The notes under the pieces were generated by a model. It had not been told where the DNA came from. It made no database searches and was given only the letters and a program-made list of their open reading frames with translations. DNA of 64,000 bases, taken from NCBI GenBank assembly GCA_963715985.1, contig CAVQSP010000010.1:224001-288000 (forward strand). Direction: 5' to 3'. Source of the DNA: an uncultured Thermoleophilia bacterium (GTDB taxonomy: Bacteria > Actinomycetota > Thermoleophilia > UBA2241). The translations under genes were made by a program, and so were the position numbers. Shown piece after piece: positions 34,566 through 57,186 of the stretch. Each line of letters starts with the position of its first letter. Position 1 is the stretch's first letter.

Positions 34566-36031
34566 GCTGTGGCCTCCTGCCAGCGGGCCACGATGTCCGC
34601 CGCGCGGCCGCAGACGGCGCCGTGCGCGAGCGCCTGGTCCACCAGGCGCCAGTACACGGCGTCGTACCCACGCGAGATGCGCGGGTCGAAGCGGTTGTTG
34701 TGCCAGAGCAGGCTGACCGCGCCGCCGCTGCGCAGGGCGCGGGAGAGCGCGGAGGCGGCGGCGTGCTCGGCCTCTGCCGCCGCCAGGCCGCGGTAGTGCG
34801 GCTCCTGCAGCGTGCCGTCCATCACCGCCAGCGGCAGCTCGACGAGGCGCAGCGGCCGGTCCTTGGCCAGCGAGTACGGGCGGAAGGGGAACGAGCAGGC
34901 GCAGCGGAAGCCCTCGTGCTCGGCGAAGGCCAGCGACGTGTCGTAGGTGAAGCCGGCTGTCTCCAGGAACGGCAGCGTCTCGTGGTACAACGCCCGCAGG
35001 TAGTGGTAGCGGATGCCGGTCACGTCGACGCCGGCGTGGCGCCCCAGCGCCTCGCGGTCGCGGCCGACCTCGTCCGCGCCAAGGCGGTCGGCGTCGTTGC
35101 CGTGCAGGCCCACCTCGCGCTCCCCCTTTCGCAGGAGGCGCAGTGCTGCGGGGAGGCGCTTGTGGTAGGTCTCCGGCTGGTTGCCGTCCCGCTTGTGGGT
35201 GTGCCGCGCGATCACGAAGAAGGTGGACGACACGCCGCGCGCGTCCTCCCCCTCGATGATCTGCGGGAAGGTCCAGAAGGGGTCCGTGCCGCGCGGCAGG
35301 TGACGGACCAGCCAGTCGGCGCCGTCGCCGAGCTCGCGGCGCAGGGCGCGCGCGTCGCGCGCCTTGACGGCGCGGGCGCTGCGGTAGCCGGCGGCGGCCA
35401 GGCCGCGCGGAGTCCAGCGCCACAGGTTGTCGAGGTCGTGCGTGAGGGCGACGGCGAAACCGGCCTCGCCCTCCCACATCCAACCGGCCCGAGGCAGTGG
35501 CTCGAGCCCGAGCTCCGCCAGCCGCGGGGCGAGGACGGCGCGCAACACGCCCACGTAGCGGTCGACCTCCGGCTCCTCCAGGCGCAGCGCCGGGTTGGCC
35601 GCGAAGACGCTCGCCGCCATCGGCAGCCGTCCGTACTGGTCGCGCTCGGTGCTGGTGCGCTCGTCCCAGCAGGCCAGCAGCACGAAGGCGGAGGCCACAA
35701 GGTCGAACGGCAGGGCGAAATCGGCGCCGGGATCGGCGGCGAAGGCACCCACGGCGAAGCCGTGGTCGCTCCGCCGCACGGTGAAGGCGCCGGGGGGCAA
35801 CGGCCGCGCGGCCGCGAGGAGCTCCATGCCGGCCGCGCCGCAGGGGATCGTCGGCACACCCGGCACGGGCTCGGGCGCATACGCAAAGGCCGTGCCGCCC
35901 GCTTGCGCCGGGTCGGTGACGATGCGGGCCCGGCGCCCCAGCGGCGCGAGCATCGTGGTCAGCGCCCAGGCGGCGCGCGGCACGAAGCCGGCGGGCGCGC
36001 CCACGAAGACCTGCAGCTCGGGCAGGCTCAC
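34562..36031 (-). CDS. Polysaccharide deacetylase family protein
   Basis: LTHDLD, STFFV, EVGLHG, RYHYLR, YDTS, GFR...FPF and LLWHN. Confidence 0.85.
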   Translation of the reverse strand: MSLPELQVFVGAPAGFVPRAAWALTTMLAPLGRRARIVTDPAQAGGTAFAYAPEPVPGVPTIPCGAAGMELLAAARPLPPGAFTVRRSDHGFAVGAFAADPGADFALPFDLVASAFVLLACWDERTSTERDQYGRLPMAASVFAANPALRLEEPEVDRYVGVLRAVLAPRLAELGLEPLPRAGWMWEGEAGFAVALTHDLDNLWRWTPRGLAAAGYRSARAVKARDARALRRELGDGADWLVRHLPRGTDPFWTFPQIIEGEDARGVSSTFFVIARHTHKRDGNQPETYHKRLPAALRLLRKGEREVGLHGNDADRLGADEVGRDREALGRHAGVDVTGIRYHYLRALYHETLPFLETAGFTYDTSLAFAEHEGFRCACSFPFRPYSLAKDRPLRLVELPLAVMDGTLQEPHYRGLAAAEAEHAAASALSRALRSGGAVSLLWHNNRFDPRISRGYDAVYWRLVDQALAHGAVCGRAADIVARWQEATA

Positions 36032-37242
36032 ACGTCTGCCCTGGCGCGCGGCGCGCGTGTCACGATCTGCCTGGCGACCGTCCAGGCGTTGAGCAGCCCG
36101 GGCACTGGGTCGTCCAGCGCGTGCAGCCCGTCCATGCGCGTGCCGCGCAGCGAGCGCACGTAGGCGACCGGGTCGCGCTGCCGTTTGGCGACCTCGAGCA
36201 GCGCCAGCGGAACGTCCTTGTTCGCGACGATCCACTTGACGCCGTCGACCTGGTGCGGCGCCACGAACGGCCTGCCGACGGCATCGCCGTACGCGGCCAG
36301 CGAGAGGTTCACGCCGCAGGCCGCGGCCAGCCCGTGCCACTTCCAGTGGCGGGCGTTGACCTCCATGAGGCGGAAGCGCCCGTCGCGCGGGTCGCGCTTG
36401 AACTCCACCTGGCTCACGCCGTGAAAGCGCAGCTCCTGCAGGAGGCGGAGCGCCGCGTCGGCGAGGTCCTCGTCCCAGGCACTCACTCCCGCCAGGCAGC
36501 TGCCGCCCGCGTGCGGGTACTGGCGCAGCTTGTGACCGGTGAACACGGCCAGCGGCCGCGAGCCCGCGTCCAGGTACGAGCCCACGGTCCAGAGCTCGTG
36601 CTCACCGCCGGGGATGCGCTCCTGCAGCATGAGCACGCCGAGGTCGTCGACCTTGTCGTAGATGCGCCGCAGCTCGGCCGGGCTCTGGATGTCGAGGATG
36701 TGGCGGTGGAAGCGCAGCTTGAAGGCCAGAGACTCCACGGGCTTGAGTACGGCCGGGAACGGCACCTCGCCGGCGGCGGCCTCCAGCTCGGCGCCGGAGC
36801 TCACGAAGACCGTCCTGGGCAGGTCCACGCCGGCGCGCGCGGCGGCGTCCATCTGCGCGCGCTTGTCGTACACGCGCTGCATGACGTCCCAGCGCGAGAA
36901 CGGCACGATGAACCAGGGCTCGAGCCGTTCGGCGTTGCGCGAGAGCGGCCAGATGTACTCGTCGTGACTGGGGAAGACCACGGCGCGCTGCGGCAGGCGC
37001 GCGCCGAAGCCCTCGAGCCAGGTGAGGAAGGCCTCCTCGTCGGCGAGCGGGTCCGGGCACACGGCGCCCGCGGCGAAGCGCGAGCTCAGGCCGATGGCGG
37101 AGGGGTCGGCGTCCAGGCCGATCACGGGGACGCCGTGACGTCCCAGGTCGCGCACCACGTCGAGGCCGCAGGCGTAGCTCACCTGGAAGACGGCGGCGGG
37201 GGGCTGCGCCGCCGCCGCGCCGATGAAGCTCGTGAACCTCAA
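36028..37242 (-). CDS. ATP-grasp carboxylate-amine ligase (D-aspartate ligase-like)
   Basis: DK, LKP, LQERIPG, KLRQYP, EFKRDPRDG and MEVNAR. Confidence 0.88.
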   Translation of the reverse strand: MRFTSFIGAAAAQPPAAVFQVSYACGLDVVRDLGRHGVPVIGLDADPSAIGLSSRFAAGAVCPDPLADEEAFLTWLEGFGARLPQRAVVFPSHDEYIWPLSRNAERLEPWFIVPFSRWDVMQRVYDKRAQMDAAARAGVDLPRTVFVSSGAELEAAAGEVPFPAVLKPVESLAFKLRFHRHILDIQSPAELRRIYDKVDDLGVLMLQERIPGGEHELWTVGSYLDAGSRPLAVFTGHKLRQYPHAGGSCLAGVSAWDEDLADAALRLLQELRFHGVSQVEFKRDPRDGRFRLMEVNARHWKWHGLAAACGVNLSLAAYGDAVGRPFVAPHQVDGVKWIVANKDVPLALLEVAKRQRDPVAYVRSLRGTRMDGLHALDDPVPGLLNAWTVARQIVTRAPRARADV

Positions 37243-37276: not shown

Positions 37277-38497
37277 TCACGGCGCCTCCCCCTCGTGCGG
37301 CTCCCCAGTGCGGGTGACGATGCGCTTGAGCTGGCGGCCGGTGATCAGCAGGCCCGGCACAGGGTCGCGCAGCGAGTACAGGCCGTCGACCTTGACGCCC
37401 CGGTACGAGCGGAGCCACGGGCCGAGCTTCTCGTCGCCGCGCCGCCACCGCGAGAGTGCGTCGCGCGCGTCGGTGAGCGCGACCACCCACTTCTTGCCGT
37501 CCACCTGGCGCGGCGCCATGTACGGGTCGCCGATGGCGTCGCGGTAGGCGGCCAGCGAGAGGTTCACGCCGCACGCGGTCGCCAGGCTGTGCCACATCCA
37601 GTGCCGCGCGTTGACCTCCATGAGGCGGTAGCGCCCGTCGCGCGGGTCGCGCTTGAACTCCACCTGGCTGACGCCGTGGTAGCCGAGCTCGTGGAGCAGG
37701 CGCAGGCCCGCCTCCGCGAGCTCGGGCACCCAGGCGCTCACAGCCATGCTCACGTGCCCGAAGCGCGGGGGGTGCTGGCGCAGCTTGTGCCCGGTGAACT
37801 GCGCCAGCGGGCGGCTCTGCGCGTCCAGGTATGAGCCCAGCGTGTACAGCTCCTCGTCACCGCCCGGCACGATGTCCTGCAGCATCAGCGTGCCGCAGTC
37901 GCGGACCGCGTCGTACACGCGCAGCAGCTCGTCCCTGGAACCGATCTCCAGCACGTGCCGCCGGAACCGCACCTTGAACGCCAGCGACTCGACCGGCTTG
38001 AAGATGGCCGGAAAGCCGATCTCCTCGGCGCCGCGCTCGAGGTCGTCGTCGCCGTCCACGAACACCGTCTTCGGGGTGTCCACCCCGACCCGCCAGGCGG
38101 TCTCCAGCTGCTCGCGCTTGTCGTGCAGGCGCCGCATGGTCTCCCAGTGAGAGAAGGGGATGATGAACCACTTCTCCAGGCGCTCGGCGTGCCGCGAGAT
38201 CGGCCAGATGTACTGGTCGTGCGTGGGGAACAACACCGGGCGCCGGCTGAAGCGCCCTCCGAGATCCTCGAGGAAGCGCAGGAACTCAGCCTCGTGCTCG
38301 CGGGGATCGGGGCACACCGCTCCGGCCGCCAGGCGCGAGTGCAGGCCGAGGGCGCGCGCGTTGGAGTCCAGGGCCAGGAGAGGGACGCCCGTCTGGGAGA
38401 GGTCGCGGATGATGTCGAGGCCGTTGGCCCACGACACCTGCATCACGATGGCCGCGTTGCGTTCCTCAGCCGCTTTCATGAACCTGTCGAAGCGCAT
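37277..38497 (-). CDS. ATP-grasp carboxylate-amine ligase (close paralog of 36028..37242)
   Basis: Same motifs: KPVESLAFK, FTGHKLRQ and EFKRDPRDGRYRLMEVNARHW. Confidence 0.88.
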   Translation of the reverse strand: MRFDRFMKAAEERNAAIVMQVSWANGLDIIRDLSQTGVPLLALDSNARALGLHSRLAAGAVCPDPREHEAEFLRFLEDLGGRFSRRPVLFPTHDQYIWPISRHAERLEKWFIIPFSHWETMRRLHDKREQLETAWRVGVDTPKTVFVDGDDDLERGAEEIGFPAIFKPVESLAFKVRFRRHVLEIGSRDELLRVYDAVRDCGTLMLQDIVPGGDEELYTLGSYLDAQSRPLAQFTGHKLRQHPPRFGHVSMAVSAWVPELAEAGLRLLHELGYHGVSQVEFKRDPRDGRYRLMEVNARHWMWHSLATACGVNLSLAAYRDAIGDPYMAPRQVDGKKWVVALTDARDALSRWRRGDEKLGPWLRSYRGVKVDGLYSLRDPVPGLLITGRQLKRIVTRTGEPHEGEAP

Positions 38498-46824: not shown

Positions 46825-47809
46825 CTGCGCGTCTCTCTCCGCCTCGCAACCCCCATCTCCCTCACCCTCGCGCTGCTCATCGTGGTCGCGGCCGCGCTGG
46901 TCGTGGCCGGCCTCGGCCTCGCCGGGTCGGCCGCCGCGGCGCCCAGACGCCTCCCAGATCGACGACTTCCTGGCGCTGCACGGCTCACCCATGACGGGCA
47001 GCGGCGCCGCCTTCGTCGCCGAGGGGCAGAAGAACGGCGTGGACCCCGCCTTCCTGGTCGCCATCAGCGGCGCCGAGTCGAGCTTCGGGCAGTTCCTCTA
47101 CTCGGAGGGCGGTGACCAGTGCACGTACAACGCCTTCAACTGGTTCTACGGCGCCACGTGGCCGCAGAGCGACTTCAGCTCGTGGGACGAGGCCATCGCG
47201 CGCGTCGCCCAGGGCCTCGCCGGTCGATCTGTACTTCGGCTCCGGGCTCTACTCCGTCCAGGCGATCGCCCCGCGGTACTGCCCGGACGGCACGGCCAAC
47301 TGGGTCGCCAACGTGACCTCGTTCATGATCCAGCTCGGCGGGGAACCCGCTCGACACGCCGCCTCGCGGGCGCAGCTTCCTCCGGACCGCCGTCCACGGA
47401 CCCGTCGCTGCTGGGCGTGAGCGGCGCAGTCGAGCTCTCGGGCGAACCGTTCGACGTCGGCCGCGAGGTCACGGCGCGGTTCACGCTGACCAACAGCGGC
47501 GACCAGCCCGTGGCTCTCGAAGGCATCCGCCTGACCGCGGTCGGGCCGGGACGGCGCCAGCGCCGCGCTGGTCTCCGACCAGGCGGTCACGCTGGCGCCC
47601 GGTCAGCCCCTGGCCGTGACCGCCGTCTGGCCGCTCGACACGGTCGGGCGCTGGAGCGGCTGGATCGAGGTCGTACAGAACGGTCAGGCGAACCTGGTCG
47701 GTCAGAAGACGGCGTTCACGCTTCCTCGTCATCGCTGCCCAAGGACGCGCTCTGCGTCGCTGGATCCGCGCAGACGCCGTGCTCTCGCCCGGGCGGCAGC
47801 GCACGCTGA
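46825..47809 (+). CDS. Secreted glucosaminidase/lysozyme-like domain protein (frameshifted)
   Basis: Signal peptide; GVDPAFLVAISGAESSFG...YNAFNW...FSSWDEAI...IAPRYCP; C-terminal Ig-like region. Confidence 0.7.
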
Positions 47810-47856: not shown

Positions 47857-49253
47857 TCAGAACTGGAAGTACAGGAAGGGGCTCGGCGCGCTCAGCGTGA
47901 GCAGTGACGCTCCCCACGAGGATGCCGATCACCAGCGCGTAGCGCAGCTTGGGCTGCGGCTTGATCTGCCAGGTGTTGGGGGCGAAGTTCACCCACAGCA
48001 GCCCGGCCACGATGAGGAGCGCCAGCACCGGCGCCAGCGGCAGCAGCGCGCCGCCCTTGACGCCGTTCAGGCCGATCATCGCGCGCAGCACGTCGAACGC
48101 CTCGCTCATGGACGCGGCGCGGAAGAACACCCAGGCCAGCACCGCGGCGAGGAACGTGAGCAGGCGGTTGAGCCACACCCAGCTCGGCGTGAGGCCCCAC
48201 TTGCGCATCAGCACGTGGAACGACTGGAACACGCCCCACAGCAGGCCCCAGAACACGAAGGTCCAGGCGGGCCCGTGCCACAGGCCGGCGAGCAGGAAGG
48301 TGATCAGCAGGTTGCGCACGGTCGCGAAGGTCGTGCCGCGCGACCCGCCCAGCGGGATGAAGAGGTAGTCGCGCAGCCACGACGAGAGCGACATGTGCCA
48401 GCGGCGCCAGAAGTCCGAGGGGTTGACCGCCTTGTAGGGCGAGTCGAAGTTCTGGGGGAAGCGCAGGCCGATCAGGAACGCCACCCCCACGGCCATGTCC
48501 GAGTAGCCGGAGAAGTCGAAGTACAGCTGCAGCGTGTAGCCCAGCGCCGCGCCCCAGCCGGAGAGCAGACCCAGGTGGGCATGGCCGGCGAACAGGCTGT
48601 TCACGTAGGGCGCCATCATGTCGGCCACGAGCAGCTTCTTGGCGAGGCCCATGGCGAGGAAGAAGACGCCCGTGCCGATGAGGCTCAGGCGGAAGCGCTG
48701 CTGCGAGCTCTCGAGCTGCTCGCCCACGTGGCCGTAGCGGATGATGGGGCCGGCCATGAGGTACGGGAAGAGCGTGGCCCAGGCGAGGTAGTGGATCACC
48801 GACCTGGCCGGGCGGATCATGCCGCGGTACACGTCCACCACGTACGAGATGGCGGCGAAGGTGTAGAAGGACACGCCCACCGGCAGCAGCACCTTGAGCA
48901 CCGGCAGCGGCTCGCCGGCTGCCCACCAGTTTGAACAGCCCGTCGAGGGAGCTGAAGAAGAAGCCACGGTACTTGAAGTAGGCCAGGAGCCCGAGGTTGA
49001 CGGTGATGGCGGCGGCCAGGAGGAGCTTGCGCCGCCGCCCCGGCGCCATCTTCGCGATGGCGTGCCCGGCCGCCCAGTCCACGAGCGTGGTGACCAGCAG
49101 CAGGGCGACGTAGCGCCAGTCCCAGAGGCCGTAGAAGACGCACGAGGCGACGATGAGGAAGGTGAGACGCGGGTAGCCGCGCGGGATCAGCCAGTAGAGG
49201 ACGACGACGACCGGCAGGAAGACGAAGAGGAAGCCGAAGCTGTTGAAGAGCAC
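47857..49253 (-). CDS. MBOAT O-acyltransferase (AlgI/PatA/DltB family; frameshifted)
   Basis: MLFNS, YFKY, LPVGVSFYTF, AGPI.R, DFSGYSDMA, FWRRWHMSLSSWLRDY, GLWHG and PFLYFQF. Confidence 0.92.
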
Positions 49254-49312: not shown

Positions 49313-50602
49313 TCACTTGGGCAGCCCGCCCGTCTGCTCGAGGACGTAGTCGACGGCCCTGCGCGTGTTGATGGTCGTCATGTGGACGCCGTCGTAGAAC
49401 TGCTTGGGGTCGGCGCCCCACCTGGTGATGTCGGTGATGTCGATGAAGACGAAGTCGTACTTGTCCTTGAGCGACTCCACGTAGTCCACGACCTGCTGGT
49501 GACGCTCCGGCCAGCCCAGTGGCCCCACCGTCTTGAGCAGCTTGGGGTTGATGGGCGTGAGCACGATGAGCGGCGTGGCGCCCTGCTCGTTCATGAAGGC
49601 CAGCGTCTTCTCGAAGTACCACTGCGCCTTGGGATCGAGCTCCTTGTAGGCGTTGCGGTACAGGTCGCCGTAGCGCTTGACCGACTTGGGCCAGCGGCGG
49701 TCCCACTCCTTCTGGGTCCAGGGACGCTCGACCTGACCGCCGTCGGGGAGGAACTTCTCGCGATACTTGTCGTAGGTGCGCTTGACCTTGTCGCGGTTCA
49801 TCATCACGCGCACCGCGTCCTTGGCCGTCACCCAGGAGAACACCGAGGAGCGGTTCTGCCACACCTTGCGGGCCACGTTGGCCGGCGTGCGCTTGATCGT
49901 GCCCGAGCCCTCCACGTACTGGGCCAGGCGCGGCTCGTTGGCGGTGCGGCCCTGGATCTTGAAGGGCACGAACGACTCCACGTCGAGGAGCCAGAGGTAC
50001 TTGGGGTCCGCCATGGGCCACGTGTCGTGGATGAAGTTCACCATGGCCCAGGCGTCGGCGGTGCCGCCGATGCCGTTGACGCCGGCGTTGAAGGTGCGCA
50101 GGCCGGTCTTCTGCTCCAGGTAGCTGGGCTCGTAGCGCAGGGAGCGCGAGCTGCCCAGCACGACCAGCTCCGGCCCCTGCTTGAGGTTCTGGATGGCGTC
50201 GGCCTTGATGGTGCGGTCCGACGTGGTGACGGTGGGCAGCAGCTTCATGCCGATGAGCCCGTAGGGGTCGGCCAGGGTGTTGAAGGCGCCGACCGCCGCC
50301 ATGACCAGCAGGGCCACCACGACGACGCCGAGCAGGAACCACAGCGTCTTGCGGCCCTTGGCCTGGTCGATCTCCGGCGGGTCCGGGATGACGCGCTTCT
50401 TGAGACCCGTGGGCGCCGGCTCGCCGGGGGCGCCTTCGGCGGGGCTCGCGGCCAGCGGCGTCTCGCCGCCGCCGGCGTCGCCCGCGCCGCTCAGTCCCTC
50501 GGCCTTGTCCAGAGACTGGGCGCCCGGCAGCAGCTCCGGCGGTACGCCGGGGCCTTCGTCCTCGGGGGACAGGGCGAACGGTTCGTTGTCGCGTGGGTCC
50601 AA
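49313..50602 (-). CDS. Membrane-anchored SGNH-like protein, MBOAT partner
   Basis: TM then DPYG, VLGSSRS, FNAGV, TPINP and FYDGVH; probable TTG start at 50602. Confidence 0.7.
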   Translation of the reverse strand: MDPRDNEPFALSPEDEGPGVPPELLPGAQSLDKAEGLSGAGDAGGGETPLAASPAEGAPGEPAPTGLKKRVIPDPPEIDQAKGRKTLWFLLGVVVVALLVMAAVGAFNTLADPYGLIGMKLLPTVTTSDRTIKADAIQNLKQGPELVVLGSSRSLRYEPSYLEQKTGLRTFNAGVNGIGGTADAWAMVNFIHDTWPMADPKYLWLLDVESFVPFKIQGRTANEPRLAQYVEGSGTIKRTPANVARKVWQNRSSVFSWVTAKDAVRVMMNRDKVKRTYDKYREKFLPDGGQVERPWTQKEWDRRWPKSVKRYGDLYRNAYKELDPKAQWYFEKTLAFMNEQGATPLIVLTPINPKLLKTVGPLGWPERHQQVVDYVESLKDKYDFVFIDITDITRWGADPKQFYDGVHMTTINTRRAVDYVLEQTGGLPK

Positions 50603-50687
50603 GAAGGTGGCGGAAGCGCCGGATGATGGCGAGCAGGAGGCTGAGAATACCACAGGCGGGGACGCGGCCCGGCCGGCGGCGGTTCGC

Positions 50688-51285
50688 TCAGACCGGGGCT
50701 TCCAGCGCTTCGCCGATGCGTTCTTCCAGTCCGTCGGCCGGTACTTCGTCAACGCCGCCGTTGACGGTGCTCGAGTCGTGGAACGCGGCGATGCCGCGTC
50801 CGTCGAAGAGGCAGCGCACGAGGCGGATGCTGCCGCCGTGCGTCACCACCAGCGTGGGCCGGCCGTCACGGGCCACGTCGCGCAGCGCCGCCAGCACCCT
50901 GCGCTGCTGGTCGACGAGGCTCTCGCCGCCGGGGAAGCGGAAGGTCTCGGGATGCTCGCGGTACTCGCGCCAGATGACGGCGTCCTCCACCATGATCTCC
51001 GCGAACAGGCGCTGCTCCCACTCGCCGCGGTGCGACTCGGCGAGGCGCGGGTCGAGCACGACCGGCAGGCCACCCAGCTCGTCGCGGACGATCTCCGCGG
51101 TCTCGCGGGCGCGCCGCAGGTGGCTGCTCACGATCAGCTCGAGGCCGCGCCCGACGAGCTCGCGACCCTGGTCGCGCGCCTGAGCGCGGCCGGTCTCGTT
51201 GAGGCTCGACCTCTGCCCAGCCCAGGCAGCGCGCCGGCTCGCGGTTCCAGTCGGTCTCGCCGTGCCTGATCAGAAGGATCGTCAA
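50688..51285 (-). CDS. Histidine phosphatase (phosphoglycerate mutase family; frameshift ~51210)
   Basis: LIRHGETDWN, SSHLRRARETA, LAE..GEWE, PGGES and VTHGG; TTG start overlaps the comA stop. Confidence 0.88.
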
Positions 51286-52034
51286 TGAAAGTGCAGCAGC
51301 GTGTCGCCGCGCACGCCCAGGCGGAGCGTCTCGACCGAGATCACCTCGTCGGGCGGGATGTTGCCGAGGTTCACGTTGGCGCCGAACTGCTTGATGAACC
51401 AGGCCTGCTGCTTCTTGATCGGCGCCTCGAACAGGAGCTGCGACGTGTCGAACGCCGTGCGGATCTCCTCGAGGAGGCCGTCCTTGACGTCGCCCGTGGG
51501 GCGGTAGATGCCCACGGTCCCGGACTCGCGCCCCTCGGTGATGACCTTCCAGGCGCCGGCCTCGAGCTCGCGCTTGATCGAGTCGACCCACTTCGTCGGG
51601 GTGATCACCACGGCTTCGTCCTTGCTGCCCACCTCGCTGAGCACGCGGAACTCCTTGGAGAAGCGGCGCAGCAGGGCGAGCTTGTCCTCTTCGTCCATGG
51701 CGACGGTGCCGTCGGAGATCTCCACGCACGTCATCTCACAGGCGCGCACGAGGGCCAGCCACTCCTCGAGCTTGTTCTGGCGCAGGCAGACCTCGAAGAA
51801 CGTGCCGCCGAAGCACACCGGCACATCGTGGCTCCGGTACAGGGCGACCTTCTCCTTGAGGTTGGGCGTCACGGCCGCCGTGCCCCATCCGAGCTTGACG
51901 ATGTCGACGTAGTCGCTCGCGACTTCCATGAACTGGCGTACCTGGTCCAGGCTGAGACCCTTGTCGAGTACGTGCGTCAGCCCGCTCTCGCGCGGCCTGC
52001 TCGTGCGCTGCGGCAGGGTGAGAAAGTCGAACAT
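51282..52034 (-). CDS. comA: Phosphosulfolactate synthase
   Basis: PRESGLTHVLDKG, DIVKLGWGT, GGTFFE, EISDG, SEVGSK, EGRESG, FEAP, NLGNI and ETLRLG.RGDT. Confidence 0.93.
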   Translation of the reverse strand: MFDFLTLPQRTSRPRESGLTHVLDKGLSLDQVRQFMEVASDYVDIVKLGWGTAAVTPNLKEKVALYRSHDVPVCFGGTFFEVCLRQNKLEEWLALVRACEMTCVEISDGTVAMDEEDKLALLRRFSKEFRVLSEVGSKDEAVVITPTKWVDSIKRELEAGAWKVITEGRESGTVGIYRPTGDVKDGLLEEIRTAFDTSQLLFEAPIKKQQAWFIKQFGANVNLGNIPPDEVISVETLRLGVRGDTLLHFH

Positions 52035-52172
52035 CGGTCGTCCTCCGTTGGTCAGGCGCCGCTCACGGCGGCGCTCGCAGAATGCTACCAGACGCGCCCG
52101 CGACCGGTCGGCGGCGCGGCGCTGGAGGCCGCAGGCGCTCCAGCGAGTGGGGCGCCGCAGGCAGACCGCTCA

Positions 52173-53192
52173 TTACCCCTTGAACAGCAGCGCCAGGCCG
52201 CTCAGGAACAGCACCGCGGCGAGGATGCCGCGCAGCACGCGGGTCGGCGCCTTGACGGTCAGCTGGGAGCCGAGAAGCACGCCGGGGATGGAGCCCATCA
52301 GCAGGGCGGCGACCATCCAGAGGTCCACGTTGCCCACGCCGATCTGCGCCAGGCCGGTGACGAGCAGCAGGATCATCGCCTGGAAGACGTCCGTCCCGAC
52401 GATGCGGTCCGTCGTGAGCGGATAGAAGAGGATCAGGAACACGCCGATGAGCGTGCCGCTGCCGACGGACGTGAGGCCGATGATGAAGCCCACCACGAGG
52501 CCGAGGCACACGGTGCCGAACTTCATACGCCGCGACATCTTGATGTTCTCGCGGCGGTACTTCATGTCGACGTGGAGGACGATCTTCACGACCAGCAGCA
52601 CGCCGACCATCATCAGGGCCGAGCCGATGGCCCGGTACAGGATGACGTTGATGAGGTCGCCGTAGTGGTTCTTGACGTAGGTGACGGCGGCCACTCCGGT
52701 GAGCGCCGCCGGCACGCTGCCGAGGCACAGCCAGAGCGCGAGCGGGATGTCCACCGACCCCTGGCGCCAATGCTTCCAGGAGCCGGCGATCTTGGTGACC
52801 GCGGCATAGGTCACGTCGGTGCCCACGGCCATGGTCGGCGAGAAGCCGAAGACGAAGATGAGCACCGGCGTCATCAGTGCGCCGCCACCCATGCCCGTGA
52901 GGCCCACGAGGAAGCCGACCATGAGGCCGGCGATGCTGAGGTAGCCGTTGAGGTTGGCGCCCAGCGTCAGGTACATGATGAGGACGAACACGCCCCAGCC
53001 GGCGAGGCCGATGCCCCAGCGCTTGAGCCACGTGCGGGTGGACATCGCCTCCGGCTCGGGGCCGGGGCGGAACGGCGGGATCGTCTCGTCGATCTGCGGG
53101 TCGAAGATCTCGCCGTCGCTGTCGAGCTCGTGGATGCCCGGGAGCAGGTGACCGGCGTCGATCGCCGCGGCGCTGCGTTCGCTGTCGCTCAT
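52173..53192 (-). CDS. TauE/SafE family sulfite/organosulfonate exporter
   Basis: GLTGMGGGALMTP, AVGTD, GLTSVGSG, IVGTD and GSIPG. Confidence 0.9.
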   Translation of the reverse strand: MSDSERSAAAIDAGHLLPGIHELDSDGEIFDPQIDETIPPFRPGPEPEAMSTRTWLKRWGIGLAGWGVFVLIMYLTLGANLNGYLSIAGLMVGFLVGLTGMGGGALMTPVLIFVFGFSPTMAVGTDVTYAAVTKIAGSWKHWRQGSVDIPLALWLCLGSVPAALTGVAAVTYVKNHYGDLINVILYRAIGSALMMVGVLLVVKIVLHVDMKYRRENIKMSRRMKFGTVCLGLVVGFIIGLTSVGSGTLIGVFLILFYPLTTDRIVGTDVFQAMILLLVTGLAQIGVGNVDLWMVAALLMGSIPGVLLGSQLTVKAPTRVLRGILAAVLFLSGLALLFKG

Positions 53193-53250
53193 GATCTCCC
53201 GACCGTCGCCCGCGCTGCAGCTGTGAGGCTGCCGGCGCCTGAATGGGCGG

Positions 53251-53294
53251 AGTATGGGCAGCCCGCACTTATCTGTCAAATAAGGTCAGGCTAT
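53251..53294 (-). promoter_or_regulatory. Sigma70 promoter of tauE overlapped by LysR-type boxes
   Basis: Minus strand TTGACA-N17-CATACT; palindrome CTTAT-N7-ATAAG (53268-53284, T-N11-A) covers the -35; adjacent ATAG-N7-TTAT. Confidence 0.7.
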
Positions 53295-53421
53295 GGATAT
53301 CCGACCCGAGCCGGGGTCCCATCGAGCCGCGAGCCTGAGCGGGGCGAGGGGTATCAGCTCAGCTGATGCGTGGCGCTCCGCTCATGCGGAATACGAATGA
53401 CGTGTGGCCCTGCCGGAGCGG

Positions 53422-54620
53422 TCAGCGCACGTACGCGTCGAGGAAGCTCCACCAGGCGACGCCGATGGGCTGCGGCTGCGCGAAGGCGGCCTGGGCGTAG
53501 TACGCCGCCTCGCTCGCGTCCCACGAGTCGCGGCTGGGCCACCAGACGCTGAGGCCGGTGGCCCTGGCGGACGCCGGCCCCGTGTCCTGGGCGATGAGCG
53601 CCGCCGCCACGTCCGCCGCGACCCGCCGTGACGCGGCCTTGAGCGCCGGGTCCGCGATGCCGCTGTCCGCCGCCAGCTGCCGGCACAGGTCGCCGAGGTC
53701 GGCGTAGTCCGTGGCCCATGCGAACCAGGACGTGCTCGGCGGCCGCGGTGATCCCCTCCCTGGAGGCCGCCAGATCGATGCGCAGCAGTGTGGCCCAGTT
53801 CTGCAGGTCGGCGGTGGCGCTGTCCAGCCTGGCCAGGTCGATCGCCGCGAGGTGGGCGCCGGGGGCCCACGTCTGTGCGTCGTAGTAGGTCTTCCAGCCG
53901 GCCACCATGTCGGCGCCCACCTGCGCCGGCGTCCGTGTGGGATCCGCCGCCACCGGCGCGAGCATGAGGTCGTAGGGGTAGCCGTTCTGCGGCACCGTCT
54001 CCTCCGAGGCGACAAGGATGCCCACCTTGCCGCTGCGCGCGGCCTCGTAGGCGACCTCCGTGTTGGCCATGTTGCAGCAGTCGAAGGCGAGGAGGTCCAC
54101 CGTCACGCCGGCGTTGGCGAGCGCGCTGCGGAACTCGTCCATGGTGATGCGGTCGCCGCCTGAGGTGTCGTCGGCGGCGAAGTAGCGCCAGCCGTAGCCG
54201 TGGTCCCACACACTCACGGCCAGCCGCCCCGAGGGATACCTGGCGCGGACCTCCTGGATGAACCACTGGAAGGTGGCGCCGTCGCCGAAGTCCTTCTCCG
54301 GGTACACGGCGACGAGCGACTGCGTGGAGCCCTCAAGCTCGACCAGCTCGCGTGCCCGTCGCGCCGCTGCGGTCCATCATCGCGACGATCTCGAATCCCT
54401 CACCGGCGGGGATCCTGAGCAGGGCGGGGAGACTGTACTGCTCCCAGTACCTGTCGAGGCTGTTGTCGCCGTCCATGTAGATGGCGTAGACCCACTGCGT
54501 GCCGGGCGCGGCGAGGGCGGTGGTCGCGGGCGCCGGGCGCGCGAGGGCGGCGGTGGACGCCGCGAGGAGCGCGACCACGGTGAGCATCGCGAGGATGACG
54601 AGAGATCGCCTCGAGCGCAT
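53422..54620 (-). CDS. Secreted clostripain-related cysteine peptidase (C11; frameshifted)
   Basis: Signal peptide; IYMDGDNSL, WDHGYGW (His), AFDCCNM (Cys) and VASEE. Confidence 0.85.
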
Positions 54621-54733
54621 GGCTCCTCCGTTCCTGTGGCCGCACAGGGCGCAGGCCCGTTCTGCGATGGTCCCGAGTATTCGCCGCCGGGGCGGCGAGC
54701 GCAAGCCGGGGCGCCGCAGGGATGAACGGACGA

Positions 54734-54826
54734 GAAGGGTCCGGCCGGCCGCGCGGAGGGCCGCGGAAGGCCGCGCGGAGGGCCGCGGAAGGCCGCGGAA
54801 GGCCGCGCGAAGGGTCAGCCGGCCGC
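54734..54826. repeat. Short tandem repeat at the LysR 3' end
   Basis: About 6 copies of GGCCGC(GC)GGA(A/G), flanked by two copies of GAAGGGTC...CCGGCCGC. Confidence 0.75.
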
Positions 54827-55717
54827 CGCGTACTGCTCGCGGAAGAACGCGAGCAGGGCCTCGGCGGCCCGGCTCAGCACGCGCGTCTTGGAGCGCACGC
54901 TGTAGAAGTCGCGCAGCACGCGGAAGCCCTCGATGGGCACGACCGCCAGTGTGCCGTGCTCCACCTCAGGTCCGATGGCCCAGCGGCTCACGAAGGTCAC
55001 GCCGCCGCCGGCGATGGCGGCCTGCTTGGCGGACTCCATGAGACCCATCTCCATGACCACGTTGAGGCGCTCGGGGCGGACGCCGGCACGGCGCAGGTGG
55101 TCCTCCACCACGATGCGCACGCCGGCGCCCTGCTGCTGCATCACCTGCGGCTCGCCGACGAGCTCGTCCAGGGTGACCTGCTCGCGCGAGGCCCACGGGT
55201 GCGAGGGGCTGCACACCAGCACGATCTCGTCGCGGGCCAGCGGCTCGGCGACCAGCTCCGGGCGCGGCGTGACGGCGCCCACGGCGCCGATCTCGAACTC
55301 GCGCGCCAGCACCCGCTCCACCACAGCGTGGGTGTCGTCCACGTGCAGCGAGATGGTGACGCCGGGGTAGGCGTCCTTGAACTGCGTGAGCATGCCGGGC
55401 AGCACGTGCTCGCCGGGACCGGTGGAGGCGCCGACCACGATGCGCCCCGCGATGAGCTCGCCGAGGTCGAGGATCTCGGTGCAGGCACGCTCGTGCAGGT
55501 CGAGGATCTCGCGACCGTACCGGTAGAGCACCTGGCCGGCGTCGGTGGGCACCACGGTGCGGCGCGAGCGGTCGAGCAGCGTGGTCTTGAGCTCGCGCTC
55601 GAGGCTGTGCACCTGCTGGCTGGCTGCGGGCTGCGTGATGTGGAGCTCGTCGGCCGCCAGCGAGAAGCTGCGCCGGTCGACGATGCGGCAGAAGAGCCGG
55701 ATCTGACGGATATCCAT
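54815..55717 (-). CDS. LysR family regulator (CysL/YeiE-like)
   Basis: SFSLAADELHITQPAASQQV helix-turn-helix; GASTGPGEHVLP, ESAKQA and GVTFVS. Confidence 0.92.
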   Translation of the reverse strand: MDIRQIRLFCRIVDRRSFSLAADELHITQPAASQQVHSLERELKTTLLDRSRRTVVPTDAGQVLYRYGREILDLHERACTEILDLGELIAGRIVVGASTGPGEHVLPGMLTQFKDAYPGVTISLHVDDTHAVVERVLAREFEIGAVGAVTPRPELVAEPLARDEIVLVCSPSHPWASREQVTLDELVGEPQVMQQQGAGVRIVVEDHLRRAGVRPERLNVVMEMGLMESAKQAAIAGGGVTFVSRWAIGPEVEHGTLAVVPIEGFRVLRDFYSVRSKTRVLSRAAEALLAFFREQYAAAG

Positions 55718-55880
55718 GCACGTATCTTATCTCATGGATTCTGCGGCGAGGAGCCGCGCCACAGCACGTGTTGCGCAGAGGCGCGTGCCGCGCCAAAGCG
55801 CGTGCTGCGTAGGGGCGCGTGCCGCGCCGGAGCGAGGAGCCGCGCCAAGGCGCGCGCCCTGGCGCGCCGAGGTGTGCGCC

Positions 55881-55967
55881 CTCCCAACCGGGAGGCATAC
55901 TCGGATCCGCGATTTCAAGCAAAGGTGTCGTTGGACGTACGCCCGGTTGAAACCGCCGAACGGAACA
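55881..55967. repeat. Dispersed intergenic repeat, copy 1
   Basis: Shares CCGCGATTTCAAGCAAAG...CGTTGGA.GTAC...TGAAAC...ACGG.ACA with 62146-62229. Confidence 0.75.
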
Positions 55968-56027
55968 GGCCCGCGGCGCGGTGTGACGCCTGCGAGCTCG
56001 GCAGAGGATGGCAGCGCCGGAACGGCA

Positions 56028-56100
56028 CGCATCGCCGTCGCTCAGACGAGCGGAGGCGCATCGCCGGCGGTCAGACGAGCGGAGGGGCCTCGCCGTCGCC
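56028..56100. repeat. 29-bp tandem repeat (~2.5 copies) spanning the DUF354 stop codon
   Basis: CGCATCGCCGTCGCTCAGACGAGCGGAGG then CGCATCGCCGGCGGTCAGACGAGCGGAGG, then a partial copy. Confidence 0.8.
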
Positions 56101-57186
56101 GACGTCGCTCACCAGGCGGCCCAGGCGCGCCCGGCGGGAGCGGGGCTGCGCCAGGTCGATGAGCCGCTCGACGAAGATGGACGGGTCCCGCGGCTGCACG
56201 GCGGCCAGGCGGTCGTCCTTCTTGCGCAGCACGATCTCGGCGGCCGTGGCCGCCGGGCGCAGGCGCCGGTCGGCGAGCAGGGCAGCGTCCACCGCCGAGG
56301 GCGGCCGCTGCGAGACGGTGTAGGCCGGCGTGCCCAGGGCGGCCGCCTCGCGCGCCATCACCCCGCCGGCGCCGAGCACGAAGTCGGCGGCGGCGAGCAG
56401 GCTGACCGCCTCGGGCAGCGGGCCATCCGGCGCGGTGAGCCCACGCGGCACACGGGCCAGAAACCGGGCGCGCTGCTCGGCGTCGCGGGCCACCAGCACG
56501 AGGGCCACGTTGCGGCGCCCGGCCAGCTCGCCGGCGAGGTCCAGCAGCGCGGCCTCCGAGCGCGCCGCCTCGCCGGACGGCAGGGCGGCGCGCTCCGCGC
56601 GCACGCGCGGCGGCCGGGGCGGGCGCAGCACGCCCACCACGTGCCGGCGGTCCACGCCGAGCCGAGCGAGGACCTCAGGGTCCGGGCGCAGGTCGTAGAG
56701 GTAGTACTCCTCCTTGAAGCCGGGGTAGCGGAAGAGCTTGTCGGGCGACGCCCCGAGGTCGGCCAGCGTCGCCTGCGGGATCGCCTCCGGCACGGCGACC
56801 TCGTCGACGAGGCGCACGTTCACGGAGTTGCTGCGCCGCGAGCGCTCGTCGTCCAGAAAGGTGAGCTGCGGGATGCCGAGGGCCCAGGCGGCGAGCACGA
56901 AGTCGCTGGCGTGGCTGCCCGCCGCCACGTCGAAGCGGCCGCTGGAGGCCGAGCCGATGAGCTGCGCCGTGCGGTTCACGAGGCCCACGGCGCGGGTGCC
57001 CAGCCCTCCGCCGCGGTGGCCGGTGGTGAGCACGCCGCCCAGCCCGTGGCGGCGCAGCACGAGGTCGGCGCCGGCGAAGCGGCGCGCCGTCACCGTGACG
57101 GTGTGCCCGGCGCCCTCCAGACGGCGGACGATGGGGGCGAAGAACACCACGTGGGAGGCGTCGGTGATGTCGACCCACACGCGCAT
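56071..57186 (-). CDS. DUF354 family protein (GT-B fold)
   Basis: MRVWVDIT..SHVVFF, TARRF, YPGFKEEYYL and GGVMAREAAALGTP. Confidence 0.85.
   Translation of the reverse strand: MRVWVDITDASHVVFFAPIVRRLEGAGHTVTVTARRFAGADLVLRRHGLGGVLTTGHRGGGLGTRAVGLVNRTAQLIGSASSGRFDVAAGSHASDFVLAAWALGIPQLTFLDDERSRRSNSVNVRLVDEVAVPEAIPQATLADLGASPDKLFRYPGFKEEYYLYDLRPDPEVLARLGVDRRHVVGVLRPPRPPRVRAERAALPSGEAARSEAALLDLAGELAGRRNVALVLVARDAEQRARFLARVPRGLTAPDGPLPEAVSLLAAADFVLGAGGVMAREAAALGTPAYTVSQRPPSAVDAALLADRRLRPAATAAEIVLRKKDDRLAAVQPRDPSIFVERLIDLAQPRSRRARLGRLVSDVGDGEAPPLV

Follow-up and report, generated by a model that had tools for sequence, protein, structure and literature searches.

A histidine phosphatase is a conserved partner of ComA in two families of Thermoleophilia and may stand in for ComB in sulfolactate synthesis

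Sulfolactate synthesis is known from methanogens and from Bacillus spores, the latter through the YitC/YitD operon, and it relies on ComB. In the ComA-ComB pathway, as set out in a published account, phosphoenolpyruvate (PEP) and sulfite give phosphosulfolactate, which in turn gives sulfolactate (PMC9457059). We analyzed a 64,000-nucleotide stretch of DNA (here called the window; G000:C10:224001-288000, ~70% G+C) in which a comA homologue is followed by a gene for a histidine phosphatase and preceded by genes for a TauE-family transporter and a LysR-type regulator. The source genome, G000, is a Thermoleophilia metagenome-assembled genome (MAG) of 22 contigs and 4.35 Mb (completeness 88.8%, contamination 7.3%) from an uncultured wetland actinobacterium. 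Comparison with related genomes makes it probable that ComA and the histidine phosphatase together synthesize sulfolactate, with the phosphatase standing in for ComB.

The locus resembles the ComA-ComB systems of class I methanogens and B. subtilis (YitD/YitC) in its first enzyme, the whole of which can be aligned with M. jannaschii ComA (1QWG, E 1.5e-46) and with B. subtilis YitD (1U83, E 9e-61), and in the predicted order of reactions, which would likewise lead from PEP and sulfite through phosphosulfolactate to sulfolactate. It differs in its second enzyme, which has the Mg-dependent ComB fold (PF04029) in those systems and is a His_Phos_1 (RHG) protein in the window. There is also no comDE context, and the ComC-family gene of G000 lies only at a distant locus. 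The closest relative of the phosphatase with a solved structure is PhoE of Geobacillus stearothermophilus (1EBB, 1H2E), a stand-alone phosphatase of broad range. Both are short forms without the mutase tail and their catalytic residues align, but the clade of the window phosphatase is fixed beside comA. A third system, the coenzyme M pathway of Xanthobacter (XcbB-XcbC), also has a bacterial ComA homologue at the head of a sulfonate pathway. This homologue starts from PEP and sulfite, and XcbC, a lyase of the fumarase/aspartase family, then eliminates phosphate to give sulfoacrylate (PMC9457059), in contrast to the hydrolytic partner in the window. Lyase_1 genes flank ComA in Verrucomicrobia and some Actinomycetota, but not in the window. 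We found no publication, judged in part by title or the opening of the abstract, that links ComA to a histidine phosphatase or to TauE in such an arrangement, and the combination of ComA with a histidine phosphatase would be a variant of the known pathway that we did not find in print. One publication that shares the terms phosphosulfolactate and TauE concerns sulfofucose catabolism.

ComA and its phosphatase partner

The comA product matched PF02679 over profile positions 2-243 of 243 (304.6 bits; cut-off 25.2). Against the archaeal ComA equivalog model TIGR03849 it scored 263.8 bits, under the cut-off of 280, a small shortfall as expected of a bacterial branch. By family function, the protein would join sulfite to PEP to give phosphosulfolactate. 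In another genome of the same genus (G140 contig 4, 726015-726865), only the first 51 ComA positions matched, beside an intact phosphatase gene; either comA has decayed there or the assembly is broken at this place too.

The C-terminal part of the phosphatase (171 residues) matched PF00300 with 122.1 bits, and the N-terminal part, which contains the RHG motif, with 21.2 bits against a cut-off of 21.7. The motifs LIRHGETDWN, SSHLRRARETAE, ESHRGEWE and VVTHGGS could be read in the sequence. When aligned by way of an orthologue, the catalytic RHG, the second arginine (SSHLRRARETA), the glutamate (ESHRGEWE) and the second histidine (THGG) coincide with those of PhoE, the nearest solved structure (1EBB/1H2E, E 3e-22 over residues 2-156). 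The PF00300 match and the catalytic set place the protein in branch 1 of the histidine phosphatase superfamily. It is a PF00300 protein and not of the ComB fold, and so at most a functional analogue of ComB and not a member of its family.

The phosphatase accompanies ComA far beyond the window. Among 42 related loci with ComA identity of at least 66%, nearly all of them in MAGs labelled Thermoleophilia, 41 could be assessed (L015 ends too early). The phosphatase gene directly follows comA in 40 of these and lies 2 kb downstream in the remaining one (L041), and is thus linked to comA in 41/41. We also searched 201 genomes sampled evenly from the class (among its families f1, which includes G000, f2, f3, f5, f6, f7 and f10), using the C-terminal part of the window phosphatase as query (E <= 1e-15) and matching the positions found to those of ComA. 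These genomes are mostly MAGs, and absence means not found in those searched. ComA was present in 102 of the 201 genomes. In f1, 27 of the 30 ComA-bearing genomes had an adjacent phosphatase gene, one had the pair split over contig ends and two gave no match. Scored over 36 f1 genomes, ComA and phosphatase occurred together in 28, ComA without phosphatase in 2, phosphatase without ComA in 2, and neither in 4. Adjacent pairs were also found in six of the nine ComA-bearing f5 genomes, at 39-48% phosphatase identity and with no TauE, LysR or DltD-like match within the 1.5-kb flanks. Over the whole sample, the pairing spans 39-81% phosphatase identity with differing flanks. Because it is kept in f5 at such low identity and with different surroundings, we take the pairing to be more than inherited synteny.

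The earlier note on this DNA, made from the sequence of the window, had seen no ComB in the module and proposed that an RHG histidine phosphatase replaces it. No PF04029 match was found in G000 (88.8% complete), in a search whose control matched in seven known genomes. In the class sample, ComB-family genes were present in 52/201 genomes. Cross-tabulated by hand, 44 genomes had both ComA and ComB, 58 had ComA only, 8 had ComB only and 91 had neither; that is, 58 of the 102 ComA-bearing genomes had no ComB-family match. ComB never adjoined comA in the sample: four f1 ComB loci had unrelated neighbours such as Fur/peroxidase, aldolase, major facilitator superfamily transporter and response regulator genes, and ComB was also found in genomes without ComA (G110, G191). 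The proposal of replacement thus survives in part. The phosphatase is a fixed partner of ComA, and to speak of it as replacing ComB would be fair for G000 and for 22 of the 33 genomes with an adjacent pair; it is not a rule, since the other 11 keep a ComB-family gene elsewhere.

The sulfite for ComA probably comes from the genome's own cysH-cysDN. These genes lie together on contig 11 of G000, and both cysH (NF002537, 270 against a cut-off of 154; TIGR02055, thioredoxin-dependent adenosine phosphosulfate reductase, 245 against 235) and cysD (338 against 195) exceed their cut-offs. PAPS_reduct genes were present in 41/60 other f1 genomes, and in five (G020, G080, G038, G161, G176) such a gene lies 1.5-5 kb from comA. 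Over the 36 scored f1 genomes, 23 had both ComA and PAPS_reduct, 7 had ComA only, 1 had PAPS_reduct only and 5 had neither. No sulfite reductase with the NIR_SIR domain was found in G000, and this domain, which marks sulfite or nitrite reductases, was found in 0/35 other f1 genomes of the class sample; in the sister families it was found in 34/36 (f2), 12/13 (f5), 24/24 (f6) and 17/17 (f7). The simplest reading of these distributions is that f1 makes sulfite without reducing it further and that ComA would be a main consumer of it. The genes of a sulfate ABC transporter (TIGR00971, 196 against 155; TIGR00968, 409 against 343) separate tauE from comA in L008 and L021. In L027, genes for a 584-aa thiamine-diphosphate enzyme, an NMT1/TauA-like binding protein and an ABC permease stand upstream of comA-phosphatase, a set that could serve sulfonate uptake and an Xsc-like reaction.

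We therefore propose a two-gene core, comA and the gene for the PhoE-like histidine phosphatase, that would be read from its own conserved extended -10 element (see below). ComA would convert sulfite and PEP to phosphosulfolactate, and the phosphatase would hydrolyze this to sulfolactate, the job done elsewhere by the unrelated fold of ComB; the conserved linkage and the chemistry both favor this assignment. 2-Phospho-3-sulfolactate is isosteric with 2,3-bisphosphoglycerate, the standard ligand of the histidine phosphatase superfamily, and, lacking a free 3-hydroxyl, it could sensibly only be hydrolyzed. With no sulfite reductase seen in the lineage, sulfate-derived sulfite would enter a sulfonate and not sulfide.

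Several observations weigh against this proposal. The phosphatase reached no NCBIfam equivalog cut-off among those tested (CobC, PspA, GpmB, dPGM and MSMEG_4193); the best match was TIGR03162 (CobC), with 127.9 bits against 162.9, and the others were further below theirs. For that reason its substrate cannot be read from its sequence. Eleven of the 33 adjacent-pair genomes also carry ComB, so that the two phosphatases are not complementary in their distribution, and 7 of the 30 ComA-bearing f1 genomes have no PAPS_reduct gene. ComA also occurs without an adjacent His_Phos_1 gene in f2 (33 ComA-bearing genomes of 36, with ComB in 0/36), in f3 (28 ComA-bearing genomes) and in f10 (2). No His_Phos_1 neighbour was found within 1.5-kb flanks at 17 Actinomycetota loci from outside the Thermoleophilia, where the neighbours of ComA were PrpD-like, Lyase_1, FAD_binding_2, DUF7714 or ATP-grasp genes (46 of 73 called open reading frames were scanned over 19 loci, with ComA and shadow frames dropped and L081 excluded). 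The same was true of the verrucomicrobial, cyanobacterial and flavobacterial ComA loci, with 30 of 79 open reading frames scanned. Because ComA goes without a linked His_Phos_1 in f2, in f3 and at the 17 Actinomycetota loci, the phosphatase would not be the sole route from phosphosulfolactate. Finally, the absences in G000 are provisional at its completeness and contamination, the related loci are kin whose counts are not independent, and every step of the proposed pathway is drawn from sequence comparison.

These points leave room for a different substrate, such as a phosphorylated sugar or a glycerate-type intermediate of the surrounding glycan pathway. Another, unrecognised enzyme would then handle phosphosulfolactate, and adjacency would mean a shared pathway and not consecutive steps. 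The wide substrate ranges of His_Phos_1 enzymes, the equivalog results, the ComA lineages that process their product without a linked phosphatase and the position of the locus inside a glycan cluster are all compatible with this. We nevertheless consider it unlikely. The two genes are immediate neighbours in the same direction in two families while their flanks change, and in the window strain they share a start/stop overlap. Nor does G000 offer an obvious substitute. No ComB was found, and there was no orthologue of the Lyase_1, FAD_binding_2 or fumarase types that are linked to ComA elsewhere, the best being 34-38% paralogues at other places in the genome. When G000 was searched by tblastn for proteins linked to ComA in other genomes (the sulfate-binding protein of L008, the 664-aa f2 protein, FAD_binding_2 and class I fumarase), the only matches were 24-38% identical and lay elsewhere, and these companions are therefore not part of the G000 module.

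Promoters, operator and regulator

The earlier note had put forward tauE, comA and the phosphatase gene as a candidate module that responds to sulfite. The genes themselves, including that for the LysR-type regulator 1.6 kb upstream of tauE, are real and all lie on the minus strand. The arrangement of promoters is different. The extended -10 element TGGTAGCAT, which had been noted as a caveat, was confirmed upstream of comA, in the 138-nt gap between tauE and comA. The strict pattern TGGTA(C/G)(C/G)AT (TGGTACCAT and close variants) is found at -53 to -59 from the comA ATG in 31 of 41 relatives, and most of the remaining relatives have TGCTAGGAT or TGCTACCAT at the same place. The element is kept whether or not tauE lies upstream. 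Because it stands at a fixed distance before comA with or without tauE, tauE and comA-phosphatase are most likely separate transcription units, and the single three-gene operon is not upheld. Between the -10 element and the Shine-Dalgarno sequence of comA, the 5' untranslated region (5'UTR) can form a hairpin (52056-52074). Relatives have a stem at the same place made of other paired bases, for example GCCGGC/GCCGGC or CGCGTCGC/GCGACGCG. An Rfam scan of 50000-56500 at E <= 1 gave no known riboswitch or leader, and only a chance match to IRES_Bip (14.9 bits).

The tauE product matched PF01925 with 150.4 bits (cut-off 32.6), has an N-terminal extension of ~85 aa and is one of four TauE-family matches in G000. 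Its gene lies directly upstream of comA in 18 of the 42 related loci, 2-5 kb away in 10, and is absent from at least 3.7 kb upstream in 9. The tauE promoter (-35 TTGACA, 53279-53274; -10 CATACT, 53256-53251) is the only sigma-70-like site in the 5.5 kb from 50500 to 56000, where shuffled sequences gave 0.2 ± 0.4. As the earlier note had seen, its -35 falls within a perfect palindrome, CTTAT-N7-ATAAG, the 17-mer CTTATTTGACAGATAAG at 53268-53284. The core of this dyad, TTAT-N7-ATAA, occurs once in the 4.35 Mb of G000. A search of G000 for a wider regulon found no second site for the 17-mer at up to three mismatches and no second TTAT-N7-ATAA.

The dyad is conserved. Of 25 relatives, 19 have an exact TTAT-N7-ATAA upstream of tauE and three others carry a variant of the block there, including a symmetric change in L014 (TAT/ATA to TGT/ACA). 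It is absent in the remaining three, where tauE follows another gene. The promoter hexamers and a block downstream of them are conserved in the relatives that have the dyad. In L065, L041 and L039, a dyad of this type also precedes the LysR orthologue, at 10-24 nt from its start, and this occurrence of a rare dyad before the LysR gene in three loci ties it to the neighbouring LysR clade. The LysR box that the earlier note had placed at tauE thus behaves like a putative operator of this regulator. Its position over a near-consensus -35 suggests repression rather than activation. Around the LysR gene we saw other repeats: a lone ATAAG half-site 8 nt before its ATG, a 7-bp inverted repeat (ATCCATG/CATGGAT) across its start codon, and, in the 350-nt gap upstream (55740-55900, minus strand), a TTGGCGCGGC-type unit directly repeated about four times. 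Near the LysR gene of f2, the half-sites occurred only in reversed order, as ATAAG-N5/6-CTTAT.

YeiE of Enterobacteria, which with YeiH serves sulfite tolerance, is the closest described parallel for the regulator. In both cases a LysR-type regulator stands beside the gene for a membrane protein tied to sulfite, and the regulatory domains are homologous (8sbh, E 5e-23), although the transporter in the window is TauE and not YeiH. YeiE is a proven sulfite sensor, in which Ser96, Ser97, Asn126, Ser127, Glu145, Arg191, Ser195 and Thr197 line the sulfite (PMC8931317). When we mapped these residues onto the window LysR through the alignment to 8sbh, the eight positions read S, T, D, T, G, Q, A and V, with only Ser96 identical. 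Among the residues so named, the ionic partner Arg191 is replaced by Gln and the residue that discriminates sulfite from sulfate, Glu145, by Gly. Fifteen orthologues, drawn from f1 and f2, all share the pattern S-T-D-T-G-Q-(A/S)-(V/I). Because it is invariant and both Arg191 and Glu145 are replaced, the regulator has a conserved effector pocket that is unlike that of YeiE. The earlier description of a CysL/YeiE-like sulfite sensor is not borne out by these replacements or by the YeiE model NF040889, on which the window LysR scored 155.3 bits, far under the cut-off of 480. It did exceed the cut-off of NF040786, a 'selenium metabolism-associated' LysR (261.3 against 250). There were no selenium genes among the Pfam matches at 27.8-64 kb of the window, and no search aimed at them was made. 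LysR orthologues adjoin ComA in f1 and also in f2, where they are 40-57% identical and tauE is missing.

These results bear on a second alternative, in which tauE, comA and the phosphatase gene form one sulfite-induced operon that detoxifies sulfite, with sulfolactate exported by TauE and a YeiE/CysL-like LysR sensing sulfite and activating transcription. The shared orientation of the three genes, the 18 loci with tauE immediately upstream of comA, the Pfam family name 'sulfite exporter TauE/SafE' and the homology of the regulator to a proven sulfite sensor (PMC8931317) speak for it. We regard it as improbable, since comA keeps its own promoter irrespective of tauE, tauE is 2-5 kb off in 10 loci and missing from at least 3.7 kb upstream in 9, the Arg191/Glu145 pair reads Gln/Gly in all 15 LysR orthologues, and the dyad on the -35 suits repression better. 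In addition, a lineage that produces its own sulfite through cysH and has no sulfite reductase points to supply rather than detoxification. Of the module as it was first described, synthesis of sulfolactate from sulfite remains likely, given the conserved pair; export, sulfite sensing and the single operon are unsupported.

In the proposal that we favor, tauE would be a separate transcription unit, with its near-consensus promoter overlaid by a dyad that would be the operator of the neighbouring LysR, and TauE would move sulfite or a sulfonate anion. Export of sulfolactate is possible. TauE accompanies ComA in three settings, among them an f3 order of FAD_binding_2, fumarase alpha and beta, ComA and TauE, and a cyanobacterial order of ComA, glyoxalase and TauE. 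Because the downstream enzymes differ among these settings, a role for TauE with the substrate, sulfite, is no less plausible than one with the product.

Frame breaks and layout of the locus

The phosphatase gene, as assembled, is not one open frame, a point missed by the earlier note. The RHG part (51285-51205) is out of frame with the remainder (51203-50688), such that the first 27 codons (MTILLIRHGETDWN...) are separated from the other 171 by one extra base within 51204-51208. In a MAFFT alignment with 40 related loci, this was a single extra C present only in the window (GAGCCTCAAC against GAG-CTCAAC), and the frame was intact in 40/40 relatives. We also aligned assembled contigs from four public metagenome runs to the region. 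In all four, one of them a 2012 soil run from a different study, the contigs lacked one base at 51204 or 51208, and these near-identical pieces had one other difference in 254-351 bases. Neither side of the break has lost a catalytic residue.

The phosphatase gene is not the only one affected. At least four genes between 46.9 and 54.7 kb have frame breaks compared with intact orthologues. By tblastn against such orthologues, the MBOAT gene changes from frame -3 to -1 near 48918, and a plus-strand gene at 46991-47732 changes frame near 47565. Between LysR and tauE, the C11 peptidase gene is divided among three or more reading frames; its orthologues are intact in L003 and L018 (431-500 aa), and in some relatives it is missing and LysR stands directly before tauE. 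The Ldh_2 gene on contig 11 of G000 is split as well. These breaks point to an indel-prone assembly. Because the extra base is absent in the 40 relatives and in the contigs of four runs, and because further breaks lie nearby, the frameshift is most likely an assembly error. That the base is nevertheless genuine and the phosphatase a pseudogene of a decaying module, as the window sequence and the broken C11 peptidase and MBOAT genes might suggest, is very improbable given the base-free public contigs, the intact frame in every relative, the many breaks within 8 kb and in Ldh_2, and the catalytic residues kept on either side.

The overlap of the phosphatase TTG (51285-51283) with the comA TGA (51284-51282), which was seen in the earlier note and reads TTGA at 51285-51282, is real, since a contig of run X1 covers 51235-51375 without gaps. 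It is private to the window strain; in all 40 relatives a spacer of roughly 20-70 nt separates the two genes.

Table 1. Positions of genes and sequence elements in the window.
Feature	Position	Strand	Basis or remark
LysR-type regulator (HTH_1 + LysR_substrate)	54815-55717	-	Pfam PF00126, PF03466
Clostripain-type (C11) peptidase, several frames	53354-54704	-	
Perfect dyad CTTAT-N7-ATAAG, T-N11-A type, putative LysR operator over the -35	53268-53284		
tauE promoter, TTGACA, 17 nt, CATACT	53251-53279	-	10/12 consensus matches
tauE, TauE/SafE-family anion transporter, 339 aa from ATG	52173-53192	-	PF01925
Extended -10-like element TGGTAGCAT, separate comA promoter	52082-52090	-	
5'UTR hairpin GCGCCGC-CGTGA-GCGGCGC	52056-52074	-	Read from sequence
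comA, (2R)-phospho-3-sulfolactate synthase homologue, 250 aa	51282-52034	-	PF02679
His_Phos_1 (PhoE-like) phosphatase, frame broken at 51204-51208	50688-51285	-	PF00300
DltD/SGNH-like gene	49313-50752	-	Pfam; conserved downstream neighbour
MBOAT gene, frame break near 48918	47879-49253	-	Pfam; conserved downstream neighbour

Glycan setting, other ComA loci and implications

The pair lies inside a ~30-kb same-strand cluster of surface-glycan genes that includes Wzz, several GT4 glycosyltransferases, a Wzy-GT fusion, a flippase, PIG-L, DegT, DUF354, three ATP-grasp genes, and the MBOAT and DltD-like genes. In most f1 loci the DltD-like gene comes after the phosphatase, and other f1 genomes have flippase or glycosyltransferase genes after comA. 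Full-length identity to the ATP-grasp at the head of a verrucomicrobial ComA operon (ATP-grasp-FAD_binding_2-Lyase_1-ComA) is 36.6% for the ATP-grasp gene at 37277-38497 and 33.8% for the one at 36028-37242; that operon also lies within a glycan locus. We suggest tentatively, and with more doubt than we attach to sulfolactate synthesis, that sulfolactate made from sulfate-derived sulfite might be ligated onto a cell-surface glycan, which would give a sulfonated envelope polymer of undescribed kind. Free export through TauE would be a weaker alternative.

Attachable sulfonate units that begin with ComA have a precedent in the misaugamycin cassette misNOPQ of Streptomyces, which encodes an acyl carrier protein, an acyl-CoA ligase, a ComA homologue and a glyoxalase and is predicted to supply a 2-sulfoacetyl unit to an antibiotic (PMC9136965). 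As described there, an actinobacterial ComA homologue is the entry to such a unit, as it would be here, but the partner enzymes differ from those in the window. In the cyanobacterial loci L044, L045 and L054, ComA is followed by a small gene of the glyoxalase fold, with TauE alongside on the other strand. This layout echoes the ComA-glyoxalase half of the sulfoacetyl cassette.

Other ComA loci have other partners. ComA is linked to FAD_binding_2 together with class I fumarase subunits or an XcbC-like Lyase_1 in L063 and L074 (f3), L060-L062 (f2) and L042 and L043 (Verrucomicrobia). Sulfolactate is an analogue of malate, and this layout suggests a possible route through sulfoacrylate to sulfopropionate, which we did not find described. 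Open frames of ~695 aa in f2 had the appearance of a ComA fusion protein; open reading frame calling and Pfam resolved them into separate FAD_binding_2, ComA and 664-666-aa genes in L061 and L062.

The frameshifted Ldh_2 gene of G000 (ComC / 2-hydroxyacid dehydrogenase family; L096, contig 11, 658000-666000) has as neighbours two ATP-grasp genes, an RraA-like aldolase/decarboxylase gene and a GINT1_N-like gene, and one of these ATP-grasp proteins is 28% identical to that of the ComA operon of L042. The substrate of the L096 locus could be sulfolactate or sulfopyruvate.

In two families of soil and wetland actinobacteria that are abundant but uncultured, an unrelated histidine phosphatase is thus the fixed partner of ComA, and it would be a non-orthologous replacement for ComB. 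From the pairing, a substrate that can be tested follows for an orphan branch of a very large enzyme superfamily. The conserved operator, unique in its genome, and the LysR clade that goes with it are predicted to form a compact regulatory system. Since the lineage links ComA to cysH and shows no sulfite reductase, it may turn sulfate into sulfonate without passing through sulfide, which would bear on the cycling of organosulfur in wetlands.

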